Shown here piece by piece: positions 37,889 through 60,815 of a stretch of 64,000 bases of DNA. Made by a program: the position numbers and the translations under genes. The notes beneath the pieces were generated by a model that had not been told where the DNA came from, did not search any database, and worked only from the letters and a program-made list of their open reading frames with translations. Source of the DNA: Planctomycetota bacterium (lineage in GTDB: Bacteria; Planctomycetota; MHYJ01; JACQXL01; JACRIJ01); contig JACRIJ010000048.1 in the NCBI GenBank assembly GCA_016220095.1, positions 5,296 through 69,295 on the forward strand. The letters run 5' to 3'. Each line of letters starts with the position of its first letter. The first letter of the stretch is position 1.

Positions 37889-39739
37889 CTACGGCACGTA
37901 CATGACATACGTTATGGCGGGCAATTCTATGTAATAATTATTATCCGAGGTTATATTGCGGAGCAAAGGATATTTGAAATTCCTGTCCAAAAGGCATCCC
38001 ATGGCGGCCATGCAGAACTGCCTGGTATTTTTCTGCTTTTCTTTTTTGCAGATACCTATGAGTATTTCAGCGGTTTTTACGTCGCCGAGCCGGCCCATAA
38101 GGTCTATCGCAGTCAATTTGAGTTCCGAATCGTCGGTTTTTACGTCGTCTTTCAATTCTTTATAAACGAATTTGTCTTCCCCGAGCATCATAAGGGCGTA
38201 CATGGCGCTCCGGTATATTTCCGTATCGCGCTTTTTGGATTCGCTGAGGGATTCCTTGATTTTCTTGACCGCGTCCTTGTCAGGTTCGCCGATTATTCCG
38301 AGCGCGAGTATTGCGTATTTTTTCAGGGCAGGATACCTTTTTTTCTCGGTGCATTTTACAAGCAGGCCGATGGAATCCTTATCGCGGAGCAACCCCAGCG
38401 CAAGCGCGCACGCGGCGCGCACGGCTTCAAACTTTTTTGCGTCATCGGCGATATCGGAGAGTATTTTGGAAGCCTTTTCCTTATTGCCGAGGATGCCGAG
38501 CCCGATAGCGGCAAAGCCCTGCAATTCGGGGCTTGTGCTGTTTACCAGCGCGTCCAGCAGAGGGTCGCACGCGGCCTCATTTCCGAGTCGGCCCAGCGAT
38601 ACTGCCGCGAAACATCTGGCCATGACATCGCGGTCCGTACGCAGTATTTTTATAAGCGTATTCAGGCCTTTTTCGTATTTCATAGAGCCCAGCGCGACAG
38701 CCGCACTGCGCCTGATATCCGGGTTTTCATCATCAACGGCGCCCCGGATAATCTCTCCGGCGGAATCTCCGCCTATCCTTCCGAGCGCCAATACCGCGCA
38801 TGCGCGCACGTTATTGAAAGTATCCCTTTTTTCGCTTGAGTTCAGGACGGTGCCGAGGAATTCCGTACAATCATCGGCCTTCATCATACCCAGCGCCGTT
38901 ACCGCGCAGGAGCGGACCTCCCAATCCTCGTTTTCATCCGTTATAAACTGCTTTAATGCTTCAATGGACGGTTTATGTCCCATAAAGCCTATGGCGAACG
39001 CCGCAAAACCCCTGGTAATTTTATTGCTTTTCCTGTCTTTCAGGAGTGACATCATCTTTTCAGCGTGCGATATGTCGCCGAGCATGCCAAGTCCGAGGAT
39101 AGTAAAATTCAAGAGGTCTTTTTCGCTGGCATCAAGCAATTTTTCAATATCCTGCGCGGCGAATTTATCATTGCTTTTCGCCAGGGCTATCACCGCGGGA
39201 AAACGGATTTCAGGGTCTTTATCCTTAAGGCATCCTAACAGGAAATCCCACAGGAGCTTGTATTCATTTTCGCGCACTACGCGCGCATCGTCTTTTTCAT
39301 CCAGGCCTTCGGTCTTATCAAAAGGATAAACCCTGCCCGTATCAATAAATTTATCCTGATTCAACTGCCACCAGAATTCCCATGCCGACGCCATATTTTC
39401 ATAAGACCTTTGATTGCCTGAAGGCATTTCAGAACCGGCGGAGCCTGAATCCCCTGAAGAATCGGGCGGCGCGGAAGGAGACGCGGCCGGAGAAGGGGTT
39501 GGCTGGGGCGGCTGTTCCGTAGGGGTGCTCTTGGGCGGGGCCTTGGGCGGAATGCCGGCCGGAGGCTGTGTTTTAGGCGGTTCCGGGGGAGGAGGCGGGG
39601 GCGGGTCGGCCCAGCGCGCCCTGAATTTTCCGCACGCATCGCCGCCGCAGATGCACCACGCATAGCTGTAGCCGCGCGCGGCATTAAGAACGGTTGCCAA
39701 AATTAGCACCGTAAAAAACAAACGAAAGATTTTTTTCAT
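37889..39739 (-). CDS. Exported HEAT/PBS-lyase-repeat protein with a proline-rich N-terminal region
   Basis: 616 aa with a signal peptide. The N-terminus is P-rich (PPPPPPPEPPKTQPP). About 12 HEAT-like repeats follow (RxxAxxALG motifs). It lies immediately downstream of the giant protein gene. Confidence 0.7.
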   Translation of the reverse strand: MKKIFRLFFTVLILATVLNAARGYSYAWCICGGDACGKFRARWADPPPPPPPEPPKTQPPAGIPPKAPPKSTPTEQPPQPTPSPAASPSAPPDSSGDSGSAGSEMPSGNQRSYENMASAWEFWWQLNQDKFIDTGRVYPFDKTEGLDEKDDARVVRENEYKLLWDFLLGCLKDKDPEIRFPAVIALAKSNDKFAAQDIEKLLDASEKDLLNFTILGLGMLGDISHAEKMMSLLKDRKSNKITRGFAAFAIGFMGHKPSIEALKQFITDENEDWEVRSCAVTALGMMKADDCTEFLGTVLNSSEKRDTFNNVRACAVLALGRIGGDSAGEIIRGAVDDENPDIRRSAAVALGSMKYEKGLNTLIKILRTDRDVMARCFAAVSLGRLGNEAACDPLLDALVNSTSPELQGFAAIGLGILGNKEKASKILSDIADDAKKFEAVRAACALALGLLRDKDSIGLLVKCTEKKRYPALKKYAILALGIIGEPDKDAVKKIKESLSESKKRDTEIYRSAMYALMMLGEDKFVYKELKDDVKTDDSELKLTAIDLMGRLGDVKTAEILIGICKKEKQKNTRQFCMAAMGCLLDRNFKYPLLRNITSDNNYYIELPAITYVMYVP

Positions 39740-39783: not shown

Positions 39784-42700
39784 TTATTGTCTCCTGAACA
39801 GCAATACCGCGACGAGTCCGAGGAGCGTTAACAGCATATATATATAAGAAGCCCTATTGTCTTGAGATGCCATTTGGGTTACAAAGCAGGCCGGTTGTGT
39901 GAGTTTACTGCCGGAATCCGAACTGTTGTCGGAAACCTGCGGATTCGGCGTTACCGGGTCAGGGGTTACCACGGGGTCCTGGCCGCCTGTTCCGGGATCC
40001 GGCTGGGTTGTTTTATTTGTAACGACTACCGTAACATAGCTTACGGCGCTGTAGTCAACCGCGTCGCTGACTGTAAGTTTGAACTTATAATTTCCGTTTA
40101 CCGTGGGGGTAAAAGACGGCTCCGGGGTGTCGGCATTGTAGAGTTCAATAACAGGGCCTTCCAACTGCGTCCAGCTGAACAGCAGGCCGTTTGAATAACC
40201 GGCTACTCCGTCCGAGTCGGTATCTGAATCATAGCTTCCCGAGCCATCCAGAGCTACCTGTTTTCCGGGTTTCGTGCTGATGGAATCACCGGCATTGGCG
40301 ACCGGCAGGTTATTTCCCTGCGGATTCAGCACGCTGTCAAAATCGTCTATTATTACAGTCACATTATCGTATGCCTGCACGGAATTCTGGTCTGTAACGG
40401 TCAATTGGAATTCATACAATCCCCTTGCCGGCGGCGCGAATTTAGGCGCTGAACTTGCGGCATCGTCAAGTGTAACGGAAATGCCGGTTTTCTGTTGCCA
40501 TAAGAAAGACAGGGAGCCGGCGCCGGTGCTTGTGTAACCGATAAGCGTTACGACAGGCATGTCATACATGTTAACGATACTGTCGCCGTCGGGATCTGTT
40601 TCAGGCGACACGAATGCCTCGGCAACAGGGAATTCGTCCGCAGTCTGCGGCACAACGTAAATCGTTATCTCGTCCGGCACGCCCCAGGCGGTTCCGTCAT
40701 TGACGGACAATTTATAAATCAAAGTGCCCGTTTCAGCGGCCGTAAAGGACAATATCTTATCCGTGCCAGCCTGAGACCCTGATAACGCGTTTTCTGTCTG
40801 CAGGAGTTCCCATTTATATGTCAAAGCATCGTTGTCCGGGTCAGAGCTGAAGCCTGCGTCAAGCGTAACAGTCTGTCCCAGGGTATATCTTGTGGCTGAA
40901 GTTGTAATCACGGCGGAAGGCATATGATTGGACGGGCTGTTCGCGTAAACTGACACGTAAGAAGTCATGCCAGGCGCATTGTCATCGTCCGTGACGTCCA
41001 GAGAGAAATAATAAACTCCGGTAGTTGCCGGTACAAAGGCGGCTATGGCGCCGTTACTGCTGTTTAATGTCAGGGTTTCGCTTGGGCCGCTGAGGTATTG
41101 CCACAAGTAGGTCTTTATATTGCCATCGTCATCCCTGCTCGTTGAACCGTCAAGGTAAACCGTAGTGCCGGTTACAGCGTTCCTGTCCGGACCCGCGCAA
41201 GCGAGCGGAGGCATATTGGTATCTTGAACCGCTATCGTTACATCAGCCGGCGAAGACAGGTTGATGCCGTCGGAAACAACCAATGAGAAATTGAATACGC
41301 CGCTTAATCCTGTTGTATCAAACACGGGTTTATCTGTCGCAGTGCTGTCAAGATTAGGATGGAACGTCCAGTTATACGTGAGAGCATCGCCGTTAGCGTC
41401 GTAAGAACCGCCGGCGTCAAGGGTAACCAAATCACCTTCGGTCACCGTTGTTGTTTTTTCGTTACTGATAACAGCCACGGGACTGACGTTATTTATTTTA
41501 ATTGTAACGGAATCAGGGGCGCTTGAAATGGCGCCTTCTTTTATTATAAGCTGGAAGACATATTCGCCTGTGGCCTTGCCCGTGAAAGACGGTGTTGAAG
41601 TGGAAGAACTGTTCAACACAACTTCCGGGCCTGACACCTGCGACCACTGGTAAATGATTCCGGTTTTGGTGCCGGTGGTATTGGTGCTTTTTGTGCCGTC
41701 AAGGGTGATAACGCTGGGGTCGGAGGTTTTATCCGAGCCGGCATTTGCGGCCGGGACTGCTCCCGTGTATTCATAACCGTTCGCTAATGTAACTGCGGCC
41801 TGAGACGGGCTTGTTATTACGACATTCACCTTTCCTGTATATCCTGAAGGGGTATAGCCGGTGAATACCGTACTGCTGACGAAAGTTACGCCTGTTGCGG
41901 GACTGCCGCCGAAGGTAATTGTTGAGCCGGATTCAAAATTCGTGCCTGTTATCGTAAAAAAGATATTGCCCGCGACACTGCCGTTATTCGGCGCAATGGA
42001 AGTTATTGTCGGCGGGGAGATATACGTAAACCCGTTCTGGCTGGTATAGCTCTGGCCGTCCGGGTTGGTTATAGTTACGTTAGCCTGGCCGAGCGTACCG
42101 TTCGGCGTTACTGCCGTGACAGCAGACGTGGAAACAACAGTCACGCTTGTTGCGGAACTGCTTCCGATTTTGAGGGTCAAACCGTTCTGGAAATTATATC
42201 CGCTGACCGTTATGCTGGTGCCGCCGCTTGAAACGCCGGAAGCGGGAGATATTAGCGCAATAGCCGGCGCTGTGGACAGGTCGTAAGAAAAACCCGCTGT
42301 CAGGGTAACGGCCTGCGAATCCGGATTAGTAACGGTCACATTTACGGTAGAGGCGACCGCCACGGCCGGCGTTAAGCAGGTTATGGTTGACGAATTAACG
42401 ACAGTTACGCTTGTGGCATTATTCGGTCCTATTTTAACGATAAGGCCGTTTGAAAAATTATTGCCCGAGATAGTCAGAGACGTACCGCCTGCAATCGGGC
42501 CGTGCGTAGGCGATACTGATGTTATCTGCGGAGACGGCAGGGCATTATATGTAAAACCGTTGGTCAGAAGGCCGTACTGCGTATCGGTATTAACGGCTTT
42601 AATCGTAACGGTTCCTGCGTTTCCGGCAGGTGAGAAACAGGTGATAGTGTTTGAATCCACACGCGTAACATTAGAAGCCGCGTTAGCGCCGAAAAATACG

Positions 42701-45700
42701 GCCACGCCGCTATTGAAGTTGCTTCCGGATATCGTGCACGAAGTGCCGCCTGTCACAAAGCCGTTATCAGGGCTGACAGACGTTATCTGCGGCACGGGCA
42801 GTGAATTATACGTATATCCGTTGAACAAAATATAATATTGCGCGTCGGTATTGACCACTTTAATTGAAACTGCACCGGCGTTTCCGGCAGGGGAAGAACA
42901 TGTTATGGTATTTGCATCCACGCGTACAACGCTCGCGGCCGCGTTAGCGCCGAAAAATACGGTTACGCCGCTGTTGAAATTGTTTCCCGCGATGGTGCAC
43001 GAGGTGCCGCCTGCCATAAGGCCGTTATCCGGGGTGATGGAAGTTATCTGCGGCGCCGGCGGCGCGTTGTATGTAAAGCCGTTAAACAGCAGGTCATATT
43101 GCGTGTCCGGATTGACGACCTTGACGGGAACTGCGCCGATACTGCCTGCCGGCGAGGAGCACGTAATGGAGGTGGAATCCACCCATGTTACAAGCAATGC
43201 CGGATTGGCGCCGAAGAACACGGTTGCGCCGTTTTTGAAATCCGTGCCCGTGATAGTGCATGGCGTATTTCCTGCGACATCGCCGTTATCAGGCGCTATG
43301 GAAATTATGTTCGGCATGGCTACGGGCTGGAACGTAAAACCGTTCGTAAGGGTTCCGGCAAGAGTGGAGGGATTGGTAACAACGACATTCACTCCTCCTA
43401 TGGTGCCGGACGGCGTGGTGCACGTAATAGACGTGCTGTTTACAACAGTTACGCCGGTAGCGCTGTTCGCGCCGATTTTCACCGTCGCGCCGGAGACGAA
43501 ATTAGTGCCTGTGATTGTCACAGAATCGCCGCCGTCGGAAGTGCCCGTATTCGGGGCTATTGATGAAACCGTGGGGCTGTTGGCGTAAACAAAGCCGTTA
43601 GTAAGAATATTATACTGTGTATCGGGATTTACGACTTTTATGTCATATGTGCCGGCGCTTTTTGCAGGCGCGGTAAAGGTCAGTGAAGAAGAACTGACGA
43701 ATGTCACGCCGGAGATGGAAGTAGTCCCGAAGAAAACGGAACAGCCGGAGACAAAATTCGTGCCTGAAATGGCGACAGAAGCGCCGCCGGCGATATCGGA
43801 TGCGGACGGAGCCGCAGAAGTTACGGAAGGCGCCGGGTCTGTGAAATACGTGAAACCGTTTGTCAATGACGCAGACTGCGGACCGGGAACTGTTACGGTA
43901 ACGGTCGCGTTTCCCGCGGCTCCTGAAGGCGCAGTGCAGGTTATTGTCAAAGCATTAACGACAATGATATTTGTCGCGAGGACTCCGCCGAAAGTGACCG
44001 TCGTGGCGGGATTGTCAATGAAATTAGTTCCCGTTACGGTAACGTTGGTTCCGCCGGTTGACGGTCCCTGGTTTGGCGAAACCGAGACAACCGTTATAGG
44101 AGTAGAAACCGTATATCTCCAGAAAGAGTAATTCGTATTACTGCTTCCGGCTATGGCAAAAATTGAGCCGTTGTAGTAGTTCAAGGATGCGCCGTCGTAG
44201 AAATAACCGAGATCTGCCGCAGACGCGTCGTCCCAAGTATTCAGGCTTATGGTGTACCTGTAATACCCCAGAGAACCGTTGCCGGCGACGGCAAAAATGT
44301 AATCGCCTGTTCCGGTGCATGCAAGCGAACCGCCTATGTTGACAGTACCCGGGAGATTAGCGCGTGCCAGCCAGGAATCTCCGGAAATAGAATATCTCCA
44401 GAACTCATTTACTCCGGAGCCGCGCAATACATAAATATAATCGCCTGTGCCGGGATATGCCATATCCGCCCCGTTTCCAGGAACATTGGTTATCGGAGTC
44501 CGGACGTCCCAGCTATTGGTTGCGATGGTATATCTCCAGAAATCATTAACACTTCCCTGGAGCAAATAAACATAAGTGCCTGTCGCGGTCATTGCCGCGC
44601 CGGTATTCACTAATCCCGGAACCGGTGCCATGGAAGTCCACGTGTTAAGGGATATTGAATACCTGTAGAAATCTGTTGTATTAGAACAGCGGGCGGCGTA
44701 AAGATAATCGCCTGTGCCCGGATAAGCTATTGCCCCTGCGGTAGCAATAGCCGCGGGCGTGCTTGCAAGGAATTTCCACGTATTGGTGCTGATATCATAG
44801 GCATTGAAATAAGAAGTGCTGGCTCCCCTCAGCGCATAGATGGAAGAACCCGCAATCTCGGAATCGCCGCCTGTGCCAGCCGTGAAATTTGTCTGGGAAA
44901 TGGAATTCCAGCTTAATCTTGAAGTGGAGAATCTCCATAATTCCTGAGTATTGGCGGCCCTGAAGGCATAGATGTAATCTGAATTCCCTATGGATACGAG
45001 GGTGGCATTGGTGCTTATTGTATTGGGAGGATACGATGTAGCCTGCCAATTCTGATTAATCAGGGAATATCTCCAGAAAGATTGATTGCCATTCCCCTGG
45101 AAGGCATACAGGTATTCGCTGTCGGAATTATGGAATTGCAAATAGCCGCCTGCGACAACATTGCCCGGCGCGGATGCTAATACCGTCCAGGTGTTGCCGG
45201 AAATGGAATATCTCCAGAAATCAGCCGTGGTACTGCCGTGGAAAGCGTAGATATAATCCCCTGAGCCGGGGTACGCGAGATAGCCGCCGTCAGTTACGGT
45301 AGCAGGCGCAGATGCCGGCGTGGTATTGTCCCATGTATTGGTGCCCGTGTCATAGGTCATAAATTCCGATTGGGTATTGCCCTGGAAGAAATACAGTTTA
45401 GTGCCCACGCGAACGGCGGAGGCGCCCGCGCTTAAATTTACCGGCGCATCCGCGTAAGAGGCGTCATTCCAGGAATTGCCTGAAATGGAATATCCCCAGA
45501 AAGTAGCCGTGTTGTTGGCTCTCGCGCAGTATATGATATCGCCGGACCCCGGATACAAAAGAACGGAGCCGGTGGATATTGTTCCCAATGTAACGGCAAG
45601 GGTCGAGTGCGTATTTGTAGAAATAATATATTTAGAAAAAGTTGTTGAATTGTTGCCATTCGTATAATATATCGTATCATTGCCGTCCCATTGAGCCCTT

Positions 45701-48700
45701 CCGCCCGTGCTCATCACCGCAGGCAAGAGAGCGGGTTCGGTCCAGACATTTGCCTGGATGTATCTGAAAGCGGCCCTGAGTGTGGCGGTTTGCACGTCGG
45801 GATTAGTAACCGTTACAGAAGCGGCCCATGCGGTGCCGGCGGGCGTCAGGCAGGTCAGCGTTTGCGAATTCACAAACGCAACGCTGGTCGCGGATGTGCC
45901 GCCGATTGTAACTGTTGCGCCGTTTACGAAATTATAGCCTTTGATTGTAACGGACGATTTTCCTGCGGACACGCCTTCTTCCGGAGTAATGGATGTTACA
46001 TAAGGTTTACTTACGAATGTCACGGCATTAGAAGAGGTATAAGTCAGGGAACCGTTACTGACCGTAATATCCGACAGTCCCAGAACGCCTGCGGGAACGA
46101 CGACCTCCAACCTCGTTGAATTTATAAAAGTAACGCTTGTGGCATTTATGGCGCCAAATTTGACCGTTGTAGTCGGGGTGAAATTAGAACCGTAGATTAC
46201 AATAGTCATTCCTCCGTTTACGGGAATGGTTGTCGGGAAGACCGTTGTAATTGAAGGAGTAAGGCCTTCAAAAAGAAGCCTGTATCTCGCAAAATACAGG
46301 CCGCCGCCTCCATTTATAGCGTACAAGTAATTATCATTTCCGTATGTCAAAAATCCGCCGGTTGAATAGGTGTAAGGGGCCGATGAAAGCGAAACCCAGG
46401 ACTTTGTAGTCTTGTAATATCCCCAAAACCCGGTCGTTGTATTGCCTTGAAGCGCATATATTACATCGCCATATCCGGGCCATGCCATGTCAAAACCGGA
46501 CGTCTCAGCAAATGGAACCGATGACTCTATAAGCCAGGTATTTGAAGCAATGTCATACGAATAGAAACCGGTCTGGGAATTACCAACCGACAAATATATT
46601 TTTCCATTGCTGTAACACAAAGCGCCGCCGTCGTTTACCACAAATGGCGTGGTTGCGAGGGATTCCCACTTGTTCTGGGATATGACATATCTCCAGAAAT
46701 ATAGTGTTCCGCCGCCGCCCGTCGCGTAGATGTAATCGCCGGTTCCGGGATAAACCGAATCCGCTCCGTAGCCGACAATGGTTGGCGCATCAGTCAAAGA
46801 AGTCCAAACGTTCGTTGTCATGTTGAATTTTGCAAATGAACTACTGCCATAACCTCTTAGGGCATATAAATAAGTAGAATCCACCTGCGTTAAGGATGAT
46901 CCATAATAAGTTCCCCAGGGCGTGGCGGTCATGGTAGTTGCGGTGTTGGCTGTGATATCATATTTATAAAAATTGGTTCCACCCTGCCCGTACATTACGT
47001 AAATCTTTTTATCGGTTGTTCCGCATATATTGCCATAGCTCATAGAACTGGGAATCGGCGTAAGCTTGGACCATTTCTGGCTCGCGAGATAATACTTGAA
47101 AACATATTGAGTGCTCTGAGCCGGGATCAGCATAATGGCATTCAGGCTTGCGATGTAGGCCATTTTGCCGCATTGATATACGCCTACAGGCGTGGCGGTC
47201 AAACTTGTCCAGCTGTTGCCTGTAATATTATAACGGGCAAAACCCGTAGTGTTGGAGCCCTGCGTACAGTAAATATACCCGTCGTTACCGTATGCCTGAT
47301 AAGCGCCGTAATAAGTTGAAAACGGCATATTTGCCATTTGCAGCCAGGAGTTTCCGGAGATGGAATACCTGTAATAGGTATTCGTATTATTGTGAGTCAC
47401 ATATATAAAATCGCCTGAACCCGGATAGTTGCCGCTTGCGCCGTAATTAAAAGTTGCGGTGAAATTAGTCATTGCCAGCCAGCTGTTGCCGGAAATCGAA
47501 TACCTTAGAAACGTATTCGTGTTGCCTCCCGGGGCGCAATAGATAAAGTCGCCCGAACCGGGATAAACCAGAAAACCTCCCGTAGTTACGTTACTGGTGC
47601 AGGCAGTCATTGTGTCCCAGGTATTTGGTCCGATATTGTAACGGTAAAATGTACTGGTGCCGCCGCCTCTTGTCAGATACAAGGCGGTTGTTGAAGGCAC
47701 ATATACCATATCAGCCCCGATGCCGCCTGTTGTTGTTACGGGCGTAAGTAATGTATAGGCATTTGAGGTAAACGAATATTTATAGAAGGCTGAAGAACTT
47801 CCAGGATAAGGCCAGAAATACGTGAAATCCCCTGTGCCGGGATAGCAGAGCGTTAAACCCTGATAGGCATTTACGGGAAGCAGGGCCATCTCGTTCCATG
47901 AATTCACGGCTTCAAATTCAAAATAATTCGTCAATGTCGCGTTCTGTAAATCCGGATTGGCGACGGTCAGGCTGGCAATCGCAAGGCCGGACGGCGCGGT
48001 GCAGGTTATCGTAAAGGGGTCAACTACCAGTACTCCCGTGGCGGAAACGCCTCCGACAGATACGGTTGCCCCGCTCACAAAATTTGCCCCGGTTATGGTA
48101 ATCGGAGTACCGCCGCTTGCCACCAAAATCTGCGGCGTTGCGGAAGTCAAATACGGTTTGCTATCGTAAGTGAAGCCGCCGACAAGGGTGGACGTCTTGG
48201 TATTAGGATTCGTTATTACCACATTGGCGGCGCCTGCTGAACCGGCCGGAATCGTCACAGTCAGGCTGATAGAACTGTTGAAAACTATGTTGGTCGCGGC
48301 CTGGCCTCCAAATGTGAGCGTAAGCCCGGGATAAAAACCGGTACCTGTAATAGACACCGGACTGTTGCCGGAAGTAGGCCCTGTTGATGGATTAATCAGC
48401 GATATTGACGGCGTTGCGCCTGAATCCAAGACGCAGTATTTCGTGATGTACGGGGTGTTATTGCCGACTAATGAATAAATATAATCATTTACTCTCGCAA
48501 AATCAGTAACCTGATAGTATTTGAAAGGCGTATTGGTCAGCGTTGTCCATGCATTAGTGGTTGTGGAATAATACCACCAGGCGTGATTTGTCGTGCTTGA
48601 CGGGCCGTAATTTGCACCGGTGGCATAAATTTTATCGCCAAACCCGGCATAAACCATTTGAGGGTAATACCCGAAAGTTGACGGGGCATTTGCCAATTGC

Positions 48701-51700
48701 GTCCATGCATTCAGGGAAATAGAATACTTATAAAAAGTCTGCTGGCCGTTTGAACCGAACATGTACATGAAATCGCCCGTGCCGGGATAATGCAGGCCGC
48801 CTCCGTAGTTAAGAGTGGCGGATAAAGAGGACATTACAGACCATGAATTTGAAGTAATATCATATTTATAGAAATCGCTGGAACTGCTGGCCCGCGCGCA
48901 ATATATGGCGTTTGCGGACGATACGTAAGCCAATCCGGCGCCGTAAGACGCGGTGTTTGGAAGCGCTGTCATCGTGTCCCAGGTATTTGTGGAAATAGTA
49001 TATCTGTAAAATGTTGTTGTCGCCGTTCCGCGCATCAAATAAATCTTATCCGTGCCGGCCAGCACCATATCCGCGCCGTAATTCACGGTGGCAGGTATGG
49101 CGGCTAAGGTTGCCCAGGTATCGGTGGCAGTGGTGTATTTCCAGAAATTCGTAGTGCTTGCGCCGCCGCATACGTATAAATTGGCTGAACCGTCATACAA
49201 TATATTTCCGCCTTCAGCTATTGATGCCGGGGCCGGGGCCACATCAACCCAGTTGTTTCTGGAAACGGAATACCTTACAAAATCCCTCTGGTAATATGCG
49301 GGCATGGAGTACAGATAATCGGAATTGGAAATGGAAAGCAATGTCCCGCCTTCCCAGTTATACGACATTGGCTGAGGTTGCATGGTTTCCCACGAATTAA
49401 GCCCCATGGAATAACGATAGAAGTACGCGCCGCTGCTAGTGGCATTTCCGCGTAATAGATAAAAGTAATTTGTCCCGTACGCCCATGCAAGCGAACCGCC
49501 GTACCGGATGGTGTTGGGCGTTGATGGCAACGTCTCCCACGTATTGCCGGCAATGGAATATCTCCAGAAATCCGTAGTATTGGCCCCGCGCGTGGCATAC
49601 AGGTAATCGCCCTGGCCGGGCCATACCAGGTCGCATCCGCCTTCCTGCTCGTTCGGGGTGCTGGCCAATTGGGCCCATGTATTGCCGGAAATTGAATATC
49701 TCAACAAGAGCTTTCTGTTTGCCGAAATACTGGCGTGGGTGCCTAATGTCGCGTAAATGTAATCGCCGCCTAACCATGCCATTGAACATCCGTAGTCCGC
49801 CAGGTATGTCGCGTTAAGAACTGTCGTATCCTGGGGGTCAACATCGTTCCACGTATCAGTAGATATCTTGTATCTCCAGAAGATGCCGGTCTGATTGCCC
49901 CTGAAGACATAGATATAGTCACCGTTCGCGAAACACATGCTTGAAGCGCGGTATAATAACGTTCCGCCGGGCGTGGTCGCGCAAACCGTCCATACGTTTG
50001 TTGACAGGCTGTATTTCCATAAAGTCGTAGTATTGTCTCCACGCAAGGCATAAATAGTATCTGCGCCGTCATAAGCCATTGCCGAGCCGTCATTAAACCA
50101 ATTGGGCGCGCAGGCAGGCGTATCCCACCCGTCCACGCTTACATATCTGAAAGCAGTTTTTAAAGAACCGTTGAAAGGGCCGGGATTGGTTACGGTTAGA
50201 TCCACGGACCAGGTATTGCCGGTTCCGGCCGGTGTCGCGCAGGTAATGCTCGTTGAGCTGACCCTGACGACGTTAGTGGCGGAATTCGCCCCGAATTTAA
50301 CCGTCACTCCAACCGCAAAATTCTCGCCTGTTATGGTAGCGTTAGTGCCGCCGGTATAAGAACCCGAATATGGCGATACTGATTTTACGATAGGATCGGT
50401 CTTGTAGGTAAACCCTCCTGTAAGCGTATTGGAAAGAGGGCCTGGGTTGGTAACAACCACATTCGCGGCCCCGGCTACTCCGGCCGGTGCGGCCGCGCTG
50501 ATTAAACCGGTATCCAGGAAAGCAACGTTCACAGCCGCAACGCCGCCGATAGTAACCGTTGCAGTCGGATAAAAATTCTTGCCGATTATCTTAACCGTGG
50601 TCCCGCCGGCCGTGCCGCCTTCATTAGGGAATATGGCTTCAGCCGTTGGAGTTGAACTTTCAAAAACCTTGTATCTGAAGAAAGATGCCGTGGTATTGCC
50701 GGCAAAACAATAGATATAATCGTTGGCGAATGTTAACGATATTCCGACATTATTAAACGTAAATGGCGAAGAACCCATTGTTGCCCATGTGTTGGTCGTC
50801 ATATTGTAACGATAGAATTCGGCCGTATTCTGGCCTCTCGTGGCATAAAGATAATTGCCGTATTTAGGATATATGAGCGCTCCACCGGACCCTATTGTGG
50901 CCGGAGTGGAAGCGAGAACGCTCCAAGTATTGCCGGAAATGGAATATCTCCAGAATTCGGAAGTGGCCGCGCCGCGCAGGGCATAGATATAATCTCCGGT
51001 GCCCGGATACGAAAGCGATGCGCCGGCCTCAACTACATTAGGCGTAAGCGCAAGCTGAGACCATGAATTTCCGGAAATGGAATATCTCCAGAAACTTGAG
51101 AAACTGCCGCCGCGAAAGGCGTAAATGAAATCGCCGGTTCCTGGATATAACAAAAATCCGCCGGTAGTTACCGTTCCGGGCGTTGAAGTCATGGTGGACC
51201 ATGAATTTGAGCCGACCGTGTATTTCCAGAAATTAGATGTGGAATTGCCGGCCATTACAAAAAGATTGGTGCCGTCGGAACAGATAGCGCCGCCTGCGCC
51301 GATAGTCCCGGTCGGCTGGGCCAGGCCAGTATTCCATGTGCCCGCGGACGTGTCATAGCGCCAGAAATCCGCCGTAGTACTGCCTCTAAGCGCATAAATA
51401 TAATTTCCCGAGCCGTAATACGACAATGAACCGCCTGCAGTGATTGTATTGGGCGCGGCAGGAATTGCACCCCACCTGTTATTGCTGATGGAATACCTTA
51501 AAACAGTATAACCCCAGTTTCCCTGATTAAAATAGAACCAATCAGTGCCGGGAACGTACACTATATCTGCGCCGCCTGCTGTGGATATCGGCACATTTGC
51601 CATATCGGACCAGGTTGTGGTGGAAATCCGATATTTTTTGAAACCATTGCTCGGCCAATTCGTACAATAAGCGTAAACATAATCGGGGTCAGACCCGAAT

Positions 51701-52416
51701 ATAAGGTCGCCTTCCGTTGTTACCGCTGTAGGCGAAACAGTGAGAGCCCCCCAGGAATTTCCGGAAATGGAATATCTCCAGAAATCCGTGGTATTGGCGC
51801 CGCGCAAGGCATAGATGTAATCGCCGGAACCCGGATACGCCAGAGCGCCGCCGGTATTGACAGCGCCGAGAGCAACCGCCTGCGCGCCTGACCATGTGTT
51901 ACTGCCAATATCATAATAGTAAAACGCGGTGCCATTGCCTATAAGGCAGTATATTCTGTTATTGGAACTGACATAAACAACATCGCTTCCGGCACTGACT
52001 GCCACGGGTATGGCCGCGCACGGAGACCATGCATTGCCGGATATGGAGTATTTTTGAAATCCTGTGGCGCCATCCCCCTGCGTCGCGTAAATAAAATCTC
52101 CACCGCCCCAGCACATAGAACCGTAACTGGGAATGCCCCAGGGACTGCCGGTAACCGAGGTGTAAGTTCTACTGCTGATAGTGTACTTGTAAAATTGAGA
52201 ACCGCCGCCGCCTTGCGTTATAAATAATGTGTCCGCTCCGGCCGCGGTTATTTGTGAACCGTAGTACGTTTGCAGAGGACAGGACGGCGGTTCTTCCCAC
52301 CCTACCTGCGCGTAAAGCTCTGCGGGAATAAAAAAGGCCATTGCAAAAATAAATAATGCAATAACCCATTTGTTTGTAATCGCCGCTGTTTTAAGATTTT
52401 TTGTGCGCATAAACAT
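39784..52416 (-). CDS. Giant cell-surface protein (4210 aa) built from beta-propeller blade repeats, many IPT/TIG domains, PKD-like domains and a C-terminal membrane anchor
   Basis: A signal peptide is followed by about 50-aa blade repeats (GxGDYIYAxRGxxxxxFWRYSISGNSW). More than 20 IPT/TIG units are present (e.g. PNEGGTAGGTTVKIIGKNFYPTATVTIGG). Five PKD-like units follow (ANAGSDKT...YQWSQVSGP). The C-terminus is a hydrophobic helix plus RRQ. Confidence 0.85.
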   Translation of the reverse strand: MFMRTKNLKTAAITNKWVIALFIFAMAFFIPAELYAQVGWEEPPSCPLQTYYGSQITAAGADTLFITQGGGGSQFYKYTISSRTYTSVTGSPWGIPSYGSMCWGGGDFIYATQGDGATGFQKYSISGNAWSPCAAIPVAVSAGSDVVYVSSNNRIYCLIGNGTAFYYYDIGSNTWSGAQAVALGAVNTGGALAYPGSGDYIYALRGANTTDFWRYSISGNSWGALTVSPTAVTTEGDLIFGSDPDYVYAYCTNWPSNGFKKYRISTTTWSDMANVPISTAGGADIVYVPGTDWFYFNQGNWGYTVLRYSISNNRWGAIPAAPNTITAGGSLSYYGSGNYIYALRGSTTADFWRYDTSAGTWNTGLAQPTGTIGAGGAICSDGTNLFVMAGNSTSNFWKYTVGSNSWSTMTSTPGTVTTGGFLLYPGTGDFIYAFRGGSFSSFWRYSISGNSWSQLALTPNVVEAGASLSYPGTGDYIYALRGAATSEFWRYSISGNTWSVLASTPATIGSGGALIYPKYGNYLYATRGQNTAEFYRYNMTTNTWATMGSSPFTFNNVGISLTFANDYIYCFAGNTTASFFRYKVFESSTPTAEAIFPNEGGTAGGTTVKIIGKNFYPTATVTIGGVAAVNVAFLDTGLISAAAPAGVAGAANVVVTNPGPLSNTLTGGFTYKTDPIVKSVSPYSGSYTGGTNATITGENFAVGVTVKFGANSATNVVRVSSTSITCATPAGTGNTWSVDLTVTNPGPFNGSLKTAFRYVSVDGWDTPACAPNWFNDGSAMAYDGADTIYALRGDNTTTLWKYSLSTNVWTVCATTPGGTLLYRASSMCFANGDYIYVFRGNQTGIFWRYKISTDTWNDVDPQDTTVLNATYLADYGCSMAWLGGDYIYATLGTHASISANRKLLLRYSISGNTWAQLASTPNEQEGGCDLVWPGQGDYLYATRGANTTDFWRYSIAGNTWETLPSTPNTIRYGGSLAWAYGTNYFYLLRGNATSSGAYFYRYSMGLNSWETMQPQPMSYNWEGGTLLSISNSDYLYSMPAYYQRDFVRYSVSRNNWVDVAPAPASIAEGGNILYDGSANLYVCGGASTTNFWKYTTATDTWATLAAIPATVNYGADMVLAGTDKIYLMRGTATTTFYRYTISTNTWDTMTALPNTASYGAGLAYVSSANAIYCARASSSSDFYKYDITSNSWSVMSSLSATLNYGGGLHYPGTGDFMYMFGSNGQQTFYKYSISLNAWTQLANAPSTFGYYPQMVYAGFGDKIYATGANYGPSSTTNHAWWYYSTTTNAWTTLTNTPFKYYQVTDFARVNDYIYSLVGNNTPYITKYCVLDSGATPSISLINPSTGPTSGNSPVSITGTGFYPGLTLTFGGQAATNIVFNSSISLTVTIPAGSAGAANVVITNPNTKTSTLVGGFTYDSKPYLTSATPQILVASGGTPITITGANFVSGATVSVGGVSATGVLVVDPFTITCTAPSGLAIASLTVANPDLQNATLTNYFEFEAVNSWNEMALLPVNAYQGLTLCYPGTGDFTYFWPYPGSSSAFYKYSFTSNAYTLLTPVTTTGGIGADMVYVPSTTALYLTRGGGTSTFYRYNIGPNTWDTMTACTSNVTTGGFLVYPGSGDFIYCAPGGNTNTFLRYSISGNSWLAMTNFTATFNYGASGNYPGSGDFIYVTHNNTNTYYRYSISGNSWLQMANMPFSTYYGAYQAYGNDGYIYCTQGSNTTGFARYNITGNSWTSLTATPVGVYQCGKMAYIASLNAIMLIPAQSTQYVFKYYLASQKWSKLTPIPSSMSYGNICGTTDKKIYVMYGQGGTNFYKYDITANTATTMTATPWGTYYGSSLTQVDSTYLYALRGYGSSSFAKFNMTTNVWTSLTDAPTIVGYGADSVYPGTGDYIYATGGGGTLYFWRYVISQNKWESLATTPFVVNDGGALCYSNGKIYLSVGNSQTGFYSYDIASNTWLIESSVPFAETSGFDMAWPGYGDVIYALQGNTTTGFWGYYKTTKSWVSLSSAPYTYSTGGFLTYGNDNYLYAINGGGGLYFARYRLLFEGLTPSITTVFPTTIPVNGGMTIVIYGSNFTPTTTVKFGAINATSVTFINSTRLEVVVPAGVLGLSDITVSNGSLTYTSSNAVTFVSKPYVTSITPEEGVSAGKSSVTIKGYNFVNGATVTIGGTSATSVAFVNSQTLTCLTPAGTAWAASVTVTNPDVQTATLRAAFRYIQANVWTEPALLPAVMSTGGRAQWDGNDTIYYTNGNNSTTFSKYIISTNTHSTLAVTLGTISTGSVLLYPGSGDIIYCARANNTATFWGYSISGNSWNDASYADAPVNLSAGASAVRVGTKLYFFQGNTQSEFMTYDTGTNTWDNTTPASAPATVTDGGYLAYPGSGDYIYAFHGSTTADFWRYSISGNTWTVLASAPGNVVAGGYLQFHNSDSEYLYAFQGNGNQSFWRYSLINQNWQATSYPPNTISTNATLVSIGNSDYIYAFRAANTQELWRFSTSRLSWNSISQTNFTAGTGGDSEIAGSSIYALRGASTSYFNAYDISTNTWKFLASTPAAIATAGAIAYPGTGDYLYAARCSNTTDFYRYSISLNTWTSMAPVPGLVNTGAAMTATGTYVYLLQGSVNDFWRYTIATNSWDVRTPITNVPGNGADMAYPGTGDYIYVLRGSGVNEFWRYSISGDSWLARANLPGTVNIGGSLACTGTGDYIFAVAGNGSLGYYRYTISLNTWDDASAADLGYFYDGASLNYYNGSIFAIAGSSNTNYSFWRYTVSTPITVVSVSPNQGPSTGGTNVTVTGTNFIDNPATTVTFGGVLATNIIVVNALTITCTAPSGAAGNATVTVTVPGPQSASLTNGFTYFTDPAPSVTSAAPSASDIAGGASVAISGTNFVSGCSVFFGTTSISGVTFVSSSSLTFTAPAKSAGTYDIKVVNPDTQYNILTNGFVYANSPTVSSIAPNTGTSDGGDSVTITGTNFVSGATVKIGANSATGVTVVNSTSITCTTPSGTIGGVNVVVTNPSTLAGTLTNGFTFQPVAMPNIISIAPDNGDVAGNTPCTITGTDFKNGATVFFGANPALLVTWVDSTSITCSSPAGSIGAVPVKVVNPDTQYDLLFNGFTYNAPPAPQITSITPDNGLMAGGTSCTIAGNNFNSGVTVFFGANAAASVVRVDANTITCSSPAGNAGAVSIKVVNTDAQYYILFNGYTYNSLPVPQITSVSPDNGFVTGGTSCTISGSNFNSGVAVFFGANAASNVTRVDSNTITCFSPAGNAGTVTIKAVNTDTQYGLLTNGFTYNALPSPQITSVSPTHGPIAGGTSLTISGNNFSNGLIVKIGPNNATSVTVVNSSTITCLTPAVAVASTVNVTVTNPDSQAVTLTAGFSYDLSTAPAIALISPASGVSSGGTSITVSGYNFQNGLTLKIGSSSATSVTVVSTSAVTAVTPNGTLGQANVTITNPDGQSYTSQNGFTYISPPTITSIAPNNGSVAGNIFFTITGTNFESGSTITFGGSPATGVTFVSSTVFTGYTPSGYTGKVNVVITSPSQAAVTLANGYEYTGAVPAANAGSDKTSDPSVITLDGTKSTNTTGTKTGIIYQWSQVSGPEVVLNSSSTSTPSFTGKATGEYVFQLIIKEGAISSAPDSVTIKINNVSPVAVISNEKTTTVTEGDLVTLDAGGSYDANGDALTYNWTFHPNLDSTATDKPVFDTTGLSGVFNFSLVVSDGINLSSPADVTIAVQDTNMPPLACAGPDRNAVTGTTVYLDGSTSRDDDGNIKTYLWQYLSGPSETLTLNSSNGAIAAFVPATTGVYYFSLDVTDDDNAPGMTSYVSVYANSPSNHMPSAVITTSATRYTLGQTVTLDAGFSSDPDNDALTYKWELLQTENALSGSQAGTDKILSFTAAETGTLIYKLSVNDGTAWGVPDEITIYVVPQTADEFPVAEAFVSPETDPDGDSIVNMYDMPVVTLIGYTSTGAGSLSFLWQQKTGISVTLDDAASSAPKFAPPARGLYEFQLTVTDQNSVQAYDNVTVIIDDFDSVLNPQGNNLPVANAGDSISTKPGKQVALDGSGSYDSDTDSDGVAGYSNGLLFSWTQLEGPVIELYNADTPEPSFTPTVNGNYKFKLTVSDAVDYSAVSYVTVVVTNKTTQPDPGTGGQDPVVTPDPVTPNPQVSDNSSDSGSKLTQPACFVTQMASQDNRASYIYMLLTLLGLVAVLLFRRQ

Positions 52417-52440
52417 TTCTCCAATTTATTTTCGCGTTAC

Positions 52441-52576
52441 GAAAAACCGCACCACTGCGAAGAAGGATGCGGGACAGCACGTAAGGGAACTGCCCTGCCG
52501 CACTCTTCCCCGGCCTATCCCGTTGTTGTCCGGAACAGGCCGTTCAGTGCATGTGCAGAGATTGTGTTGTGTTTCA
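52441..52576 (-). ncRNA. Conserved structured 3' element downstream of small-protein paralog 1, possibly an attenuator in front of the giant gene
   Basis: It is about 85% identical to 53851-53961. It forms two hairpins with compensatory and wobble changes between copies, and a T5 tract follows. Confidence 0.4.
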
Positions 52577-52792
52577 TTATAATTCCGTCTTCTGCCAGCC
52601 AACAAGGTATCCGTCCGTAAAAATATAGCGTTCTTTCATGTTGCCGCTGACATGCGAATAAATCCATTCCTCATGCCTCGCGGAATTCCTGTTGCTGGCC
52701 GTCCTGACCTCTTTGGCCATGGGCTTGCCGCGTACGCATAAAATGTCCTCGGTCGTAAACGGCGGACAACATATTTTTAAGTCTTTATTCAT
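52577..52792 (-). CDS. Small 71-aa protein, paralog 1, sigma-54-dependent, unknown function
   Basis: The sequence is MNKDLKICCPPFTTEDILCVRGKPMAKEV...YIFTDGYLVGWQKTEL. It is about 80% identical to the 53962-54180 product. It has the RBS GGAGG. Confidence 0.6.
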   Translation of the reverse strand: MNKDLKICCPPFTTEDILCVRGKPMAKEVRTASNRNSARHEEWIYSHVSGNMKERYIFTDGYLVGWQKTEL

Positions 52793-52841
52793 ATATATTC
52801 CTCCAGAAATAATGCAAAACCTTCTCTATAATATAGTATAA

Positions 52842-52857
52842 CGCAAATGCAGTGCCA
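52842..52857 (-). promoter_or_regulatory. Sigma-54 promoter of small-protein paralog 1
   Basis: The minus strand reads TGGCACtgcatTTGC with the GG-N10-GC spacing. It lies about 50 nt upstream of the ATG. Confidence 0.65.
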
Positions 52858-52968
52858 TAGCGCTTAATAAGGCAAAAGCAGGCGCTATCTCTAACACGCT
52901 GTTTGTCAACATGTTGTGGCGGCGGCAAAGGGCCGGTTTTTAGGGGTTTTACGGCAGATGTGCTAAAA

Positions 52969-52997
52969 TTCATACAGATGGATAATTTTTCATACAG
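52969..52997 (-). promoter_or_regulatory. Putative enhancer/UAS direct repeat TTCATACA-N13-TTCATACA
   Basis: It lies about 115 bp upstream of the sigma-54 promoter. The same motif sits at the same distance upstream of paralog 2. Confidence 0.45.
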
Positions 52998-53850
52998 AAG
53001 CGTTGAAATGCAGGGTAACCAGGATATGCCGGCGTTATTTTGCAGCAAGGGACGATTTTTACAACAGATTGAACAGATTAAACGGATTGACGACTACGAC
53101 TAAACAACGAAACAATCCGGACGATGAAACGAAACCACAGATTTTACAAGATTAACACACACATTCGCTCTGCGCAATGCAGGCAAGATTGCGACGACGT
53201 ATCCTGGGTATCCTGTACATCCGATGCAGATAACGGCGCGTTTACGAACGGTTATTTACATGGCAAAACATATATACTTAGCGTGCTTAACGGCCTTTGC
53301 GGGCAAAACGTCGTTCGCTCTAACGGCGACGATTCAACCGCAAAGCAAGTTTACCCTGAGCGGAGCGAAGGGCAAAGTACGCTAAGACGATGCGAATATC
53401 CGTCGTCTTTGCGTTCTTTGCGGTCTTAGCGGTTTATTTCGGTCGTCGTACGTCCGAGCCGCCGACGAACGCAATAAGCCGCAGAGGACGTCAAGAGCGC
53501 CAAGTGACTTGACGAAAGTAGAAGTTGAGACTTAAGACTATAAAGCAGCATAGCCGCAACCAAAACGACTACACGATTATTTGCCACGAAGGCACGAGGT
53601 CACGAAGAATGACGAACGACTATGCCAATTAGCCACAGAGCGCACAGGGAGCGCGGAAAACCATATGACATTCCAATAAATTACTTGAAAAAAGGTGTTC
53701 CCCTTCGTAAAATTCTAAAATCTTCCAATCTTGGAATTTTCTAATCTTGGAATCCGTAAAGTGATTTTCGACATTCGCCCCGGCACCCGGATCTTGGCTC
53801 TCGGCCGTCGTTCTCCCTCCTTCGTTTTCTCTTCTTCCTCCTCATAAAAG

Positions 53851-53961
53851 AAGAGTGCAGGACAGCCCGTAAGAGAACTGCCCTGCCTTGATCTTCCCCG
53901 GCCTATTCCGTTGTTGTCCGGAATAGCCCGTTTAGTGTATGTGTAGAGGTTGTGTTGTGTT
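53851..53961 (-). ncRNA. Conserved structured 3' element downstream of paralog 2
   Basis: One hairpin is CTATTCCG-gacaacaa-CGGAATAG and a second is GCAGGGCAG...CTGTCCTGC. It is homologous to 52441-52576. Confidence 0.4.
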
Positions 53962-54180
53962 TTACTGTAATTCCGTCTTCTGCCAGCCTACAAGATATCC
54001 GTCCGTGAAAATGTATTTTTCTTTCGTATTGCCGTTAACGTGCGAATAAATCCATTCCTCCTGCTTTGCGGAATTCCTGTTATTGATAATCCTGACCTCT
54101 TTGGCCATGGGTTTGCCGCGTACGCATAAAACATCCTCGGTCGTGAACGGCGGACAAGATACTTTTGATTCTTTGTTCAT
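53962..54180 (-). CDS. Small 72-aa protein, paralog 2, sigma-54-dependent, unknown function
   Basis: The sequence is MNKESKVSCPPFTTEDVLCVRGKPMAKEVRIINNRNSAKQEEWIYSHVNGNTKEKYIFTDGYLVGWQKTELQ. It has the RBS GGAGG. Confidence 0.6.
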   Translation of the reverse strand: MNKESKVSCPPFTTEDVLCVRGKPMAKEVRIINNRNSAKQEEWIYSHVNGNTKEKYIFTDGYLVGWQKTELQ

Positions 54181-54228
54181 GATTCCTCCGGAAACAATTC
54201 AAGATTCTCTCTGCTATTCTCTTTACAC

Positions 54229-54243
54229 GCAAAAATAATGCCA
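54229..54243 (-). promoter_or_regulatory. Sigma-54 promoter of small-protein paralog 2
   Basis: The minus strand reads TGGCATtatttTTGC with the GG-N10-GC spacing. Confidence 0.55.
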
Positions 54244-54346
54244 TTAAAATGAAAAAAACAAACACTGGCGTGTCGTTATAACGGATTGATTATCAAGGTG
54301 TTGCGTTGGCGGAAGAAGTGCGCCTTTCATACCTCAATTAAACGGG

Positions 54347-54374
54347 TGTAGTAAAATTCATACATGTGATTGAA
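54347..54374 (-). promoter_or_regulatory. Putative UAS direct repeat TTCATACA-N13-TTCATACC
   Basis: It is a homolog of 52969-52997. A third half-site lies at 54313. Confidence 0.45.
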
Positions 54375-54406
54375 TTTTCATACCTGGAAATGAATTTACA
54401 TAATTC

Positions 54407-56407: not shown

Positions 56408-56745
56408 TAAATATTGAAGAATTGAATAAGCGGACAGTGAATGACGGCGAAATCAACAGGGGCTCTAAGAGACTTTAAAGAGACTGACGACGAGCCCTGA
56501 ACAACAGATTGAACAGATTAAACGGATTGACGACTACGACTAAACGACTGAACAACCGGACGACGGGATGAAACCATATAAAGAAGAAGGCAGTAAGAAG
56601 GCAGGCTGACGCACCGTTCGTCGTCCGTCGTTCAACTGTCGCCTGTTCACATATCACCTTTCGTCGTCGTCCCTCGCTACTCGTTACTGGCTACTCGCTA
56701 CTTCGTCCATCCGTCCTTCATTCTTCATTCTTCATACTTCGTAAG

Positions 56746-56819
<74 letters not shown>

Positions 56820-57066
56820 AAAATCTGCTCTGCAGATTTTGCAGAAGCAAATGCAGTTAATTTTCAACTGTTAAACGTATTTTAATCAACAATAGATAAA
56901 AACGCAAGAAAAAGAATGTTCTAATAGTAACCCGTCAGTAAACGGTGGCATTAAAGGGCGGTAGTGGCCCAGCCATTTATGGCCGGGGTGTAGAAAACTG
57001 AAAAACATGGAGGGCATTCATGCCCTTAATATAACGCTATAAATAGCCTGGTTTGTTGACCTGTTT

Positions 57067-57621: not shown

Positions 57622-57833
57622 GCTGTCAGGAATTTTTTTAAGACTTCAGCAATTGAGGTTAATGATTTACGCAAAGAAATTACATCCAACAGAAAATCAA
57701 AGTCTTTGGAATAACGTGGATTATTGACATTGAATGTCATTGCTTGAGCGCCAGATAAAACAAAATCCTCCGCGGCACTGCCCAATTCAGTCATCAATTC
57801 TAATAAATAGGTTTTTTGCGGTTCTTTAATCAT
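57612..57833 (-). CDS. N-terminal part of an AbiEii/DUF1814-like nucleotidyltransferase
   Basis: It carries the NTase core FVLSGAQAMTFNVNNPRYSKDFDFLLD (GS...DxD). It overlaps the upstream gene by 8 nt. Confidence 0.5.
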   Translation of the reverse strand: MIKEPQKTYLLELMTELGSAAEDFVLSGAQAMTFNVNNPRYSKDFDFLLDVISLRKSLTSIAEVLKKFLTAWN

Positions 57834-59128: not shown

Positions 59129-59154
59129 ATTCCGGATATAGGAGATTTCTTGAA

Positions 59155-60799: not shown

Positions 60800-60815
60800 T
60801 GATAAAGATAATGCT

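Follow-up and report, generated by a model that had tools for sequence, protein, structure and literature searches.

In the relevant part of one study (10.1101/2023.03.06.531300), 'choice-of-anchor' designates surface proteins whose homologues use different C-terminal anchors. Here we describe a giant protein, hereafter the giant, that carries repeats of one such family. Its gene occupies positions 39784 to 52416 on the minus strand of a 64-kb stretch of a Planctomycetota metagenome-assembled genome (MAG) (64,000 nucleotides of contig JACRIJ010000048.1, hereafter the window). The protein combines Kelch-type blades with IPT/TIG and PKD domains and ends with a hydrophobic helix and a basic tail. 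All 15 of its TIG units match NF058597 (choice-of-anchor Z, a subfamily of IPT/TIG, PF01833), a model that covers the repeat only and includes neither the eight predicted Kelch propellers nor the PKD array nor the tail of the giant.

The blades belong to an uncharacterised bacterial family found in Dehalococcoidia, Planctomycetota, Omnitrophota and Patescibacteria, and described in Pfam by Kelch_1, Kelch_6 and Beta-prop_ATRN-LZTR1. Our statements about homologues concern the best 120 of 608 homologues of the first blade block. They share with the giant the same 46-aa blade (GDYIYA.RG....FWRYSISGN.W), arranged in units of 6 or 12, with 30-48% identity. However, all of these best 120 of 608 are at most 1357 aa long and carry one or two propeller units, whereas the giant would have eight, and none of them is another multi-block protein in which double propellers alternate with TIG pairs. 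Their tails follow the choice-of-anchor pattern, being MYXO-CTERM (P0116), type IX secretion system (T9SS) type A (P0088 and P0044), another helix followed by basic residues, or absent.

For the C-terminus, the closest described systems are MYXO-CTERM and related Cys-containing tripartite signals (10.1101/2023.06.07.544157; myxosortase, PMC11980579). The giant resembles them by its Cys segment, helix and C-terminal Arg cluster on a protein with a signal peptide, and its Cys and helix are separated by about the same distance as in the MYXO-CTERM tail of P0116. It differs from them by the lack of any match to TIGR03901 or related models, by a charged spacer, by the single occurrence of its tail and by the lack of a cognate CPBP protease in the window. 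Among eukaryotic proteins, the plexin, MET and attractin receptors also associate a propeller head, an IPT/Ig-like stalk and a single C-terminal transmembrane helix. Furthermore, the IPT domains of plexin-A and MET and the Kelch domains of attractin and KLHL proteins give significant sequence matches to the giant. However, plexins and MET carry a seven-bladed Sema domain whereas the propellers of the giant are modelled as six-bladed Kelch domains, and the giant has no signalling domain and a cytoplasmic end of only 3 residues. The likeness is limited to the design and to shared domain superfamilies.

Planctomycetota and other uncultured bacteria frequently have giant repetitive envelope proteins, for which the ligands and the way to the surface are mostly obscure. 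The giant is already in public collections and all of its domains fall in curated families; what is unusual is its scale and its regularity. Its C-terminal anchor is unclassified. The protein can be viewed as a clean case of modular build-up, with four predicted tandem double Kelch propellers alternating with Ig-like pairs on a 15-domain stalk. It also extends a widespread and uncharacterised bacterial Kelch family that is attached by several types of anchor. The main outcome of our analysis is a correction of the domain counts given in an earlier note made from the sequence alone; the idea of a new sorting class, also put forward there, has no positive support.

Reading frame and domain organisation

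The reading frame includes 4210 codons from the first ATG and 4208 from the probable start at 52410. The earlier note had announced a single open reading frame (ORF) of 4210 aa, and this holds: no internal stop interrupts the 12.6 kb of the frame between 39784 and 52416, no frameshift was seen in it, and the same protein has been deposited independently. The deposited protein (MBI5359860.1, 4208 aa, 'IPT/TIG domain-containing protein', locus tags HZA48_) comes from a Planctomycetes/Planctomycetota MAG, is encoded by a 70,364-bp contig, and its first residue corresponds to the second in-frame ATG. The two ATGs lie within 52410-52416. Since a GGAG motif is found 8 nt upstream of the second one, 52410 is the likelier start and the first ATG is probably not used. 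Exact-sequence contig look-ups with the giant and with the ProRS encoded in the window gave no match, and the IMPDH of the window matched only a 3.9-kb Logan contig.

The N-terminus (residues 1-36, numbered from the first ATG; 52309-52416) reads MRTKNLKTAAITNK, then WVIALFIFAMAFFIPA, then ELYA/QV. It resembles a Sec signal peptide, as previously proposed, with a basic n-region, a hydrophobic core (WVIALFIFAMAFFIPA) and a cleavage-like site LYA/Q. It was recognised by reading the sequence and from a flagged hydrophobic segment.

Every repeat unit was then mapped with hidden Markov models (HMMs) built from the repeats of the giant itself; all features given below are on the minus strand. Block 1 (residues 52-587, 50656-52263) consists of 12 Kelch-type blades, modelled as two six-bladed propellers according to the blade HMM, AlphaFold2 (AF2) and Foldseek. 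It is followed by TIG pair 1 (residues 588-759, 50140-50655), detected by Pfam, NCBIfam and our HMM. Block 2 (residues 776-1333, 48418-50091) also includes 12 Kelch-type blades, recognised by our HMM and by Pfam as Beta-prop_ATRN-LZTR1 and Kelch families, and precedes TIG pair 2 (residues 1334-1502, 47911-48417). Our HMM also delineates block 3 (residues 1505-2051, 46264-47904), made of an N-terminal closing strand and 12 Kelch-type blades, TIG pair 3 (residues 2052-2220, 45757-46263) and block 4 (residues 2237-2771, 44104-45708), again with 12 Kelch-type blades. Then come nine tandem IPT/TIG domains (residues 2772-3551, 41764-44103), six K319L-like PKD domains (residues 3559-4124, 40045-41742), a low-complexity linker rich in Pro, Thr and Asp (residues 4125-4170, 39907-40044) and the C-terminal tail (residues 4171-4210, 39787-39906). 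Hence, sequence features support an exported protein made of propeller, IPT/TIG and PKD modules.

Kelch propellers

With the blade HMM, we counted 48 blades of about 46 aa, distributed in 4 blocks of exactly 12. The motif G.GDYIYA.RG....FWRYSISGN.W recurs along the protein, and a short W..P closing strand precedes each block. More than 60 blades of about 47 aa had been reported; the recurring motif, with a length of about 46 aa, is thus retained and the count falls to 48. Individual units score from 20 to 74 bits, so that the repeats are far beyond chance. The HMM scan recommended in the earlier note placed the TIG, K319L-like PKD and Kelch families all above cutoff; for the blades, Kelch_6 reached 140 bits (cutoff 25.3) and Beta-prop_ATRN-LZTR1 113.9 bits (cutoff 50). 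A sequence profile search of the PDB with the blades retrieved KLHL20, KLHL12 and KEAP1.

The AF2 model of block 1, obtained from an 11-sequence alignment of 12-blade blocks, has a pLDDT of 87.8 and a pTM of 0.77. It supersedes a single-sequence model of block 4 (pLDDT 39). In a Foldseek comparison with the PDB, about 275 columns of this model, i.e. half of block 1, align with the Kelch domains of KLHL20 (TMt 0.72) and KLHL2 (0.69), and the full-length model aligns with tandem double propellers (LRP6, GH74 and the WD40 UTPs). Moreover, the number of blades in the homologues is almost always 6 or 12. Since half of the model fits a single Kelch domain, the full length fits double propellers and homologues count 6 or 12 blades, the best reading is that each block forms two six-bladed Kelch propellers, which would make eight in all; closure of the rings is predicted from the AF2 model. 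The several propellers previously suggested would therefore correspond to four blocks, each modelled as a pair. We also considered a single 12-bladed ring, which is disfavoured because the half-model superposes on closed six-bladed Kelch domains and the homologues come in units of 6.

IPT/TIG and PKD arrays

The 15 IPT/TIG units are organised as three pairs located after blocks 1 to 3 and a run of 9 after block 4. Pfam TIG (PF01833) totals 608.5 bits (cutoff 20.9) over 15 stretches, again far above what chance would give. NF058597 (CoaZ_rpt_PGGG, 'choice-of-anchor Z repeating domain') totals 371.9 bits (cutoff 30), also over 15 stretches, and is the best NCBIfam match of the giant; its number of stretches equals the number of TIG units and its top stretch lies on one of them. 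Pairs or triplets had been described between the propellers: the pairs are there (three times two), and no triplet appears on our HMM map. The tandem run of about 13 IPT units that had also been described is not found, since our HMM counts 9, for a total of 15 on which Pfam and NCBIfam agree. TIG units 10-12 share 61-74% amino acid identity and are recent duplicates. In the DNA, they correspond to the sole tandem repeat, which has a period of 261 nt (42521-43116, 2.3 copies, 75% identity).

Downstream of the TIG run, the K319L-like PKD model (PF22352) scores 177.4 bits (cutoff 27) over 6 stretches, and our own HMM also delimits six units; PKD domains had thus been correctly recognised, although their number was given as five. 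In a PDB sequence search, the TIG part of the giant matches the IPT domains of plexin and MET, and the PKD part matches the PKD domains of KIAA0319L.

C-terminal tail

The tail can be written KLTQPACFV-TQMASQDNRA-SYIYMLLTLLGLVAVLLF-RRQ. It includes a Cys segment (KLTQPACFV, with Cys4182 in PACF), a 12-residue polar spacer, a hydrophobic helix of about 18 residues (SYIYMLLTLLGLVAVLLF) and a basic end (RRQ). The hydrophobic window covers residues 4188-4206, with a mean Kyte-Doolittle (KD) value of 1.89. The C-terminal sequence quoted in the earlier note is exact, and its description as a hydrophobic helix plus a basic tail is confirmed. As a baseline, about 1% of the ORFs in 1.3 Mb of unrelated loci end with a helix and basic residues, nearly all of them being polytopic permeases. 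The tail is a genuine membrane segment, which does not by itself make it a sorting signal.

In agreement with the absence of LPXTG, PEP or GlyGly motifs noted previously, no NCBIfam/TIGRFAM model of a known signal (LPXTG, PEP-CTERM, GlyGly-CTERM, MYXO-CTERM, JDVT-, Synerg- or CGP-CTERM, PGF-CTERM, T9SS CTD) matches the tail at cutoff, and the claim that the tail falls outside known signals withstood this check, which had been set beforehand. The top signal match is VPDSG-CTERM with 8.2 bits (cutoff 22), and it covers only the helix and basic part. This negative result is meaningful because the same scan recognised the tails of homologues, i.e. MYXO-CTERM on P0116 (21.5 bits, cutoff 20) and T9SS type A on P0088 and P0044 (about 39.7 bits, cutoff 23). 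A 'CFI-box'-like C-terminal motif was considered and then dropped, since the motif part of the tail had no match among the NCBIfam models, whatever their type.

The only other known bearer of the tail was found in a separate search. It is an orthologue (P0001) encoded by locus L002 of an independent metagenome (JGI 3300040800). KLTQPACFV is identical in the two proteins, which carries little information given their overall identity of 74-76% and since they are the only two sequences known and are orthologues. The orthologue keeps the Cys, has a second one in 'GCGA' and ends with RKRR; its tail gives 13.0 bits with LPXTG_anchor (cutoff 15.9) and 12.6 bits with Loki-CTERM (cutoff 19.9), on the helix part only. 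Identity between the two proteins is 62% in the tail, 73% in the linker and 76% in the PKD domains (74-76% overall). Therefore, the tail is under no visibly stronger constraint than the rest of the protein.

Within the 64-kb window, the tail occurs once among the ORFs. A profile built from the two tails was searched with full HMMER against 1.84 billion representative proteins, whose parent collection includes the proteins of the MAG; it retrieved only the giant itself and four internal matches read as noise, with little power for short and loosely conserved signals. Two of these matches (P0123 and P0124) were rejected on account of their internal position in internally repetitive ORFs, and the two others (P0125 and P0126) were judged to be noise from match position and number of stretches alone. 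A word search with the tail only returned nothing, a weak result as this search apparently does not return the proteins of the window themselves. A metagenome scan with the aligned C-terminal regions gave one distant PKD protein only, which is uninformative.

Eight attributes of tripartite C-terminal sorting signals have been listed by Haft (10.1101/2023.06.07.544157). Five of the eight are found here: an extreme C-terminal position (last 40 residues), a helix, a basic cluster, a signal peptide on the protein and homologues bearing other signals. The tail does not recur within one genome, as far as can be judged from one occurrence in 64 kb and from the representatives, in which only the giant is found. 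Neither is it common to otherwise dissimilar proteins, its other bearer being the orthologue. An invariant signature is not definable because only two sequences, from orthologues, are known. No cognate sorting enzyme adjoins the gene, whose neighbours encode a HEAT-repeat protein, ProRS, small ORFs and a sigma54 enhancer-binding protein. More broadly, no sortase, exosortase, rhombosortase or CPBP-like gene was found in the 64-kb window, where the only multi-pass membrane protein found is an MFS transporter. The proposal of a new CTERM sorting class is thus not supported: no unrelated protein with this tail was retrieved from the window or the representatives, the tail is less conserved than its passenger and no candidate enzyme was found in the window. 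A plain stop-transfer membrane anchor explains everything observed for the tail.

Other tails of the blade family are mentioned here as separate observations. About 13 six-blade homologues (P0023, P0059, P0067, P0071, P0072, P0076, P0090, P0095, P0097, P0103, P0104, P0106 and P0113) end with GG.V.P.NK..VL.PWL, a helix and R/K residues. No NCBIfam signal was found at cutoff for these tails; the two that were scanned gave sub-threshold matches to sortase signals, the best one being LAVTG with 19.3 bits (cutoff 27). These proteins may be mutual orthologues or may bear an uncurated type of anchor. P0004, a 12-blade protein of 1136 aa with CHAP and FN3 domains, ends with EGSCFGLEGLIPLVVIIWFITRRKQNWEKEA, i.e. 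another Cys-Phe motif directly followed by a helix and a basic cluster, and has no NCBIfam signal match.

Proposed role and alternative explanations

Taken together, these features make it reasonably probable that the giant is a Sec-exported type I membrane protein that serves as a multivalent binding component, in the manner of an adhesin or a receptor, in the envelope of an uncultured Planctomycete. The signal peptide would take the chain across the cytoplasmic membrane, in which the C-terminal helix and RRQ would act as a permanent stop-transfer anchor, as expected from the positive-inside rule. The membrane-proximal Pro/Thr-rich linker, the six PKD and the nine IPT/TIG domains might form a long semi-rigid stalk. 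Past this stalk, four modules of two six-bladed Kelch propellers separated by TIG pairs would expose, presumably at the surface, eight potential ligand-binding faces.

Several points weigh against this proposal. The host is presumed to be diderm. With an inner-membrane helix alone, the ectodomain, which likely exceeds 100 nm, would remain below the outer membrane, on its periplasmic side; consequently, the role of adhesin fits poorly unless processing occurs or the envelope is unusual. With 3 residues only (RRQ), the cytoplasmic end is as short as that of cleaved sorting signals. The Cys located 12 residues before the helix is kept in the orthologue, in a layout like that of Cys-type tripartite signals. 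Furthermore, homologues of the blade family carry MYXO-CTERM or T9SS tails, which indicates that its members are as a rule passed on to dedicated systems for sorting. Finally, we know of no binding partner or ligand for the bacterial Kelch family to which the giant belongs.

Some of these points would be accommodated by a cleavable Cys-type tripartite signal, undescribed and restricted to a lineage, comparable to MYXO-CTERM, JDVT-CTERM or Synerg-CTERM. After Sec export, the Cys of PACF would be modified, the helix removed by an intramembrane protease (CPBP/Rce1-like or other) and the protein transferred to the outer surface. The five attributes shared with described signals, the conservation of the Cys and the additional one in the orthologue, a Cys-to-helix spacing (about 12 residues) like that of the P0116 tail and the membership of the TIG repeats in a curated 'choice-of-anchor' family all point in this direction, as does an ectodomain that is probably too long for a normal periplasm. 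However, neither the search of the 1.84 billion representatives nor the window yielded a second, unrelated bearer, and the only two known sequences are orthologues whose tail evolves faster than the passenger domains. Besides, the spacer is charged (D, R) whereas that of the P0116 MYXO-CTERM tail is made of small residues, the motif part has no HMM match even below threshold, and no gene for an enzyme lies nearby. As the profile search has low power for short and loosely conserved signals, these data do no more than weaken the hypothesis, and we regard a signal of this type as unlikely. That the PACF-spacer-helix-RR tail is such a lineage-restricted member of the Cys-containing tripartite signals, cleaved, probably once its Cys has been modified, by an intramembrane protease whose gene lies elsewhere in the genome, is likewise rather unlikely. 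If true, such processing would explain how a protein of more than 100 nm with eight propellers is displayed beyond the outer membrane of a Planctomycete, and the Cys-type sorting systems would gain a branch in Planctomycetes.

Alternatively, the giant could keep the topology proposed above, remain permanently anchored in the cytoplasmic membrane and work with the HEAT-repeat protein as a structural element of the periplasm or envelope (spacer, scaffold or device capturing polymers). Planctomycetes can have enlarged periplasms, used in polymer uptake; an exported HEAT partner is kept adjacent, and the NCBIfam scans revealed no recognisable outer-membrane targeting feature. Nevertheless, the sequence gives no specific hint of such a role, the homologous propeller modules of other phyla bear surface-display signals (T9SS, MYXO-CTERM) that suggest an outward-facing family, and placement of the host is loose, the best ProRS match being only 58% identical. 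A periplasmic role is therefore doubtful. A last hypothesis, an assembly artefact of repeated modules or a decaying pseudogene, takes its force from the MAG origin of a highly repetitive sequence. Against it stand an open frame of 12.6 kb without any stop, a regular architecture and the divergence of the repeats, blade blocks being 34-38% identical, which is approximately their distance from the homologues of other phyla, and TIG units being for the most part 30-55% identical. Since the units have diverged and the DNA contains only one tandem repeat, of 2.3 copies at 75% identity, collapse or chimeric joins are unlikely. Moreover, the independent metagenome locus carries an orthologous 3' end that is 74-76% identical, includes the tail and precedes the HEAT gene. 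An assembly artefact is thus unlikely judging from the sequence, and we hold this explanation as a whole to be very improbable.

Gene neighbourhood and putative regulation

The gene located downstream of the giant gene (37889-39739, minus strand) encodes a 616-aa HEAT-repeat protein (MBI5359859.1) that includes a Pro-rich linker and whose N-terminus carries a hydrophobic signal or anchor. This gene has the same orientation as the giant gene and the gap between them is 44 nt, in which no terminator-like site was found on their strand. The adjacency is kept in L002, where the start of the HEAT gene follows the orthologous 3' end. The spacer of L002 (698-985) is 277 nt long versus 44 nt here, and includes two GC-rich inverted repeats (CCCTCCCCATCGGATGGGGGAGGG and GGCCATGAACCGAGAAGGCTCTGGTTCATGGC), read by eye, so that the two genes may in some cases be transcribed separately. 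Hence, the operon with an exported HEAT protein that the earlier note inferred stands for orientation, contiguity and N-terminal signal, and co-transcription is plausible from the short gap and the conserved adjacency. A scan of a genome collection with ProRS found a related giant or HEAT gene in 0 of 80 loci, the best ProRS match (58% identity) coming from another Planctomycetota MAG, and a metagenome scan with the HEAT protein retrieved nothing.

Upstream of the giant gene, a cassette of about 540 nt is present in two copies sharing 85% identity (52440-53030 and 53840-54420, minus strand), separated by about 810 nt without a convincing ORF. Each includes a box resembling an upstream activating sequence (TGTATGAAAA...TGTATGAATTTTA), a sigma54-type -24/-12 element (TGGCAC-N5-TTGC at 52843-52857 and TGGCAT-N5-TTGC at 54229-54243), an ORF of 71 or 72 aa (MNK..CPPFTTED.LCVRGKPMAKEV...GYLVGWQKTEL) without any Pfam match and, 3' of its stop, two conserved hairpins. 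Conservation is equally high in the ORF and in the non-coding 3' part. In copy 2, the 71-aa ORF lies at 52577-52792 and the hairpins at about 52530-52447, and the cassette ends about 30 nt before the giant start. A gene encoding a sigma54-dependent enhancer-binding protein with an AAA+ domain and a Fis-type helix-turn-helix (54407-56407, minus strand) is a candidate regulator of the cassettes and of the giant gene. Cassette copy 2 is likely the promoter region of the giant gene. Since it ends just 5' of the giant start and the regulator gene adjoins upstream, the giant gene is probably sigma54-dependent and transcribed through the cassette hairpins. Transcription would start from the sigma54 promoter located 430 nt upstream, under the control of the adjacent enhancer-binding protein, and might run into the HEAT gene.

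A third exact sigma54-type element (TGGCACGCAGGTTGC, 19738-19752, minus strand) is located upstream of a flagellar operon that fills the first 18 kb of the window (1-18 kb; FliF, G, H, I, J, K, FlgE, MotA/B, FliL, N, O, P, R and FlhB). Three such elements are thus found in 64 kb versus 0.44 expected by chance. An NtrC-type response regulator and a histidine kinase are encoded at 20137-22401.

Other genes of the window

Besides the flagellar operon, the two-component and sigma54 regulators and the HEAT protein, the window includes genes encoding TPR proteins, an MFS transporter, IMPDH and ProRS, as well as a low-GC region. A second large exported protein of the window (1182 aa; 26836-30384, minus strand) begins like a lipoprotein (..AVGCGGGGGSSS) and includes a long Gly/Thr-rich run and CarboxypepD_reg domains. 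It shows a sub-threshold InhA-like MAM match, no NCBIfam match and no C-terminal anchor. Directly after tRNA-Arg(CCT) (56745-56819), the GC content, about 50% until then, falls to about 41%. The low-GC region (56000-64000) encodes an AAA_14/DUF4143 ATPase, two adjacent paralogous membrane-plus-TPR proteins with an STM3941-like N-terminus and unannotated ORFs. This region resembles an island that has integrated at tRNA-Arg(CCT).

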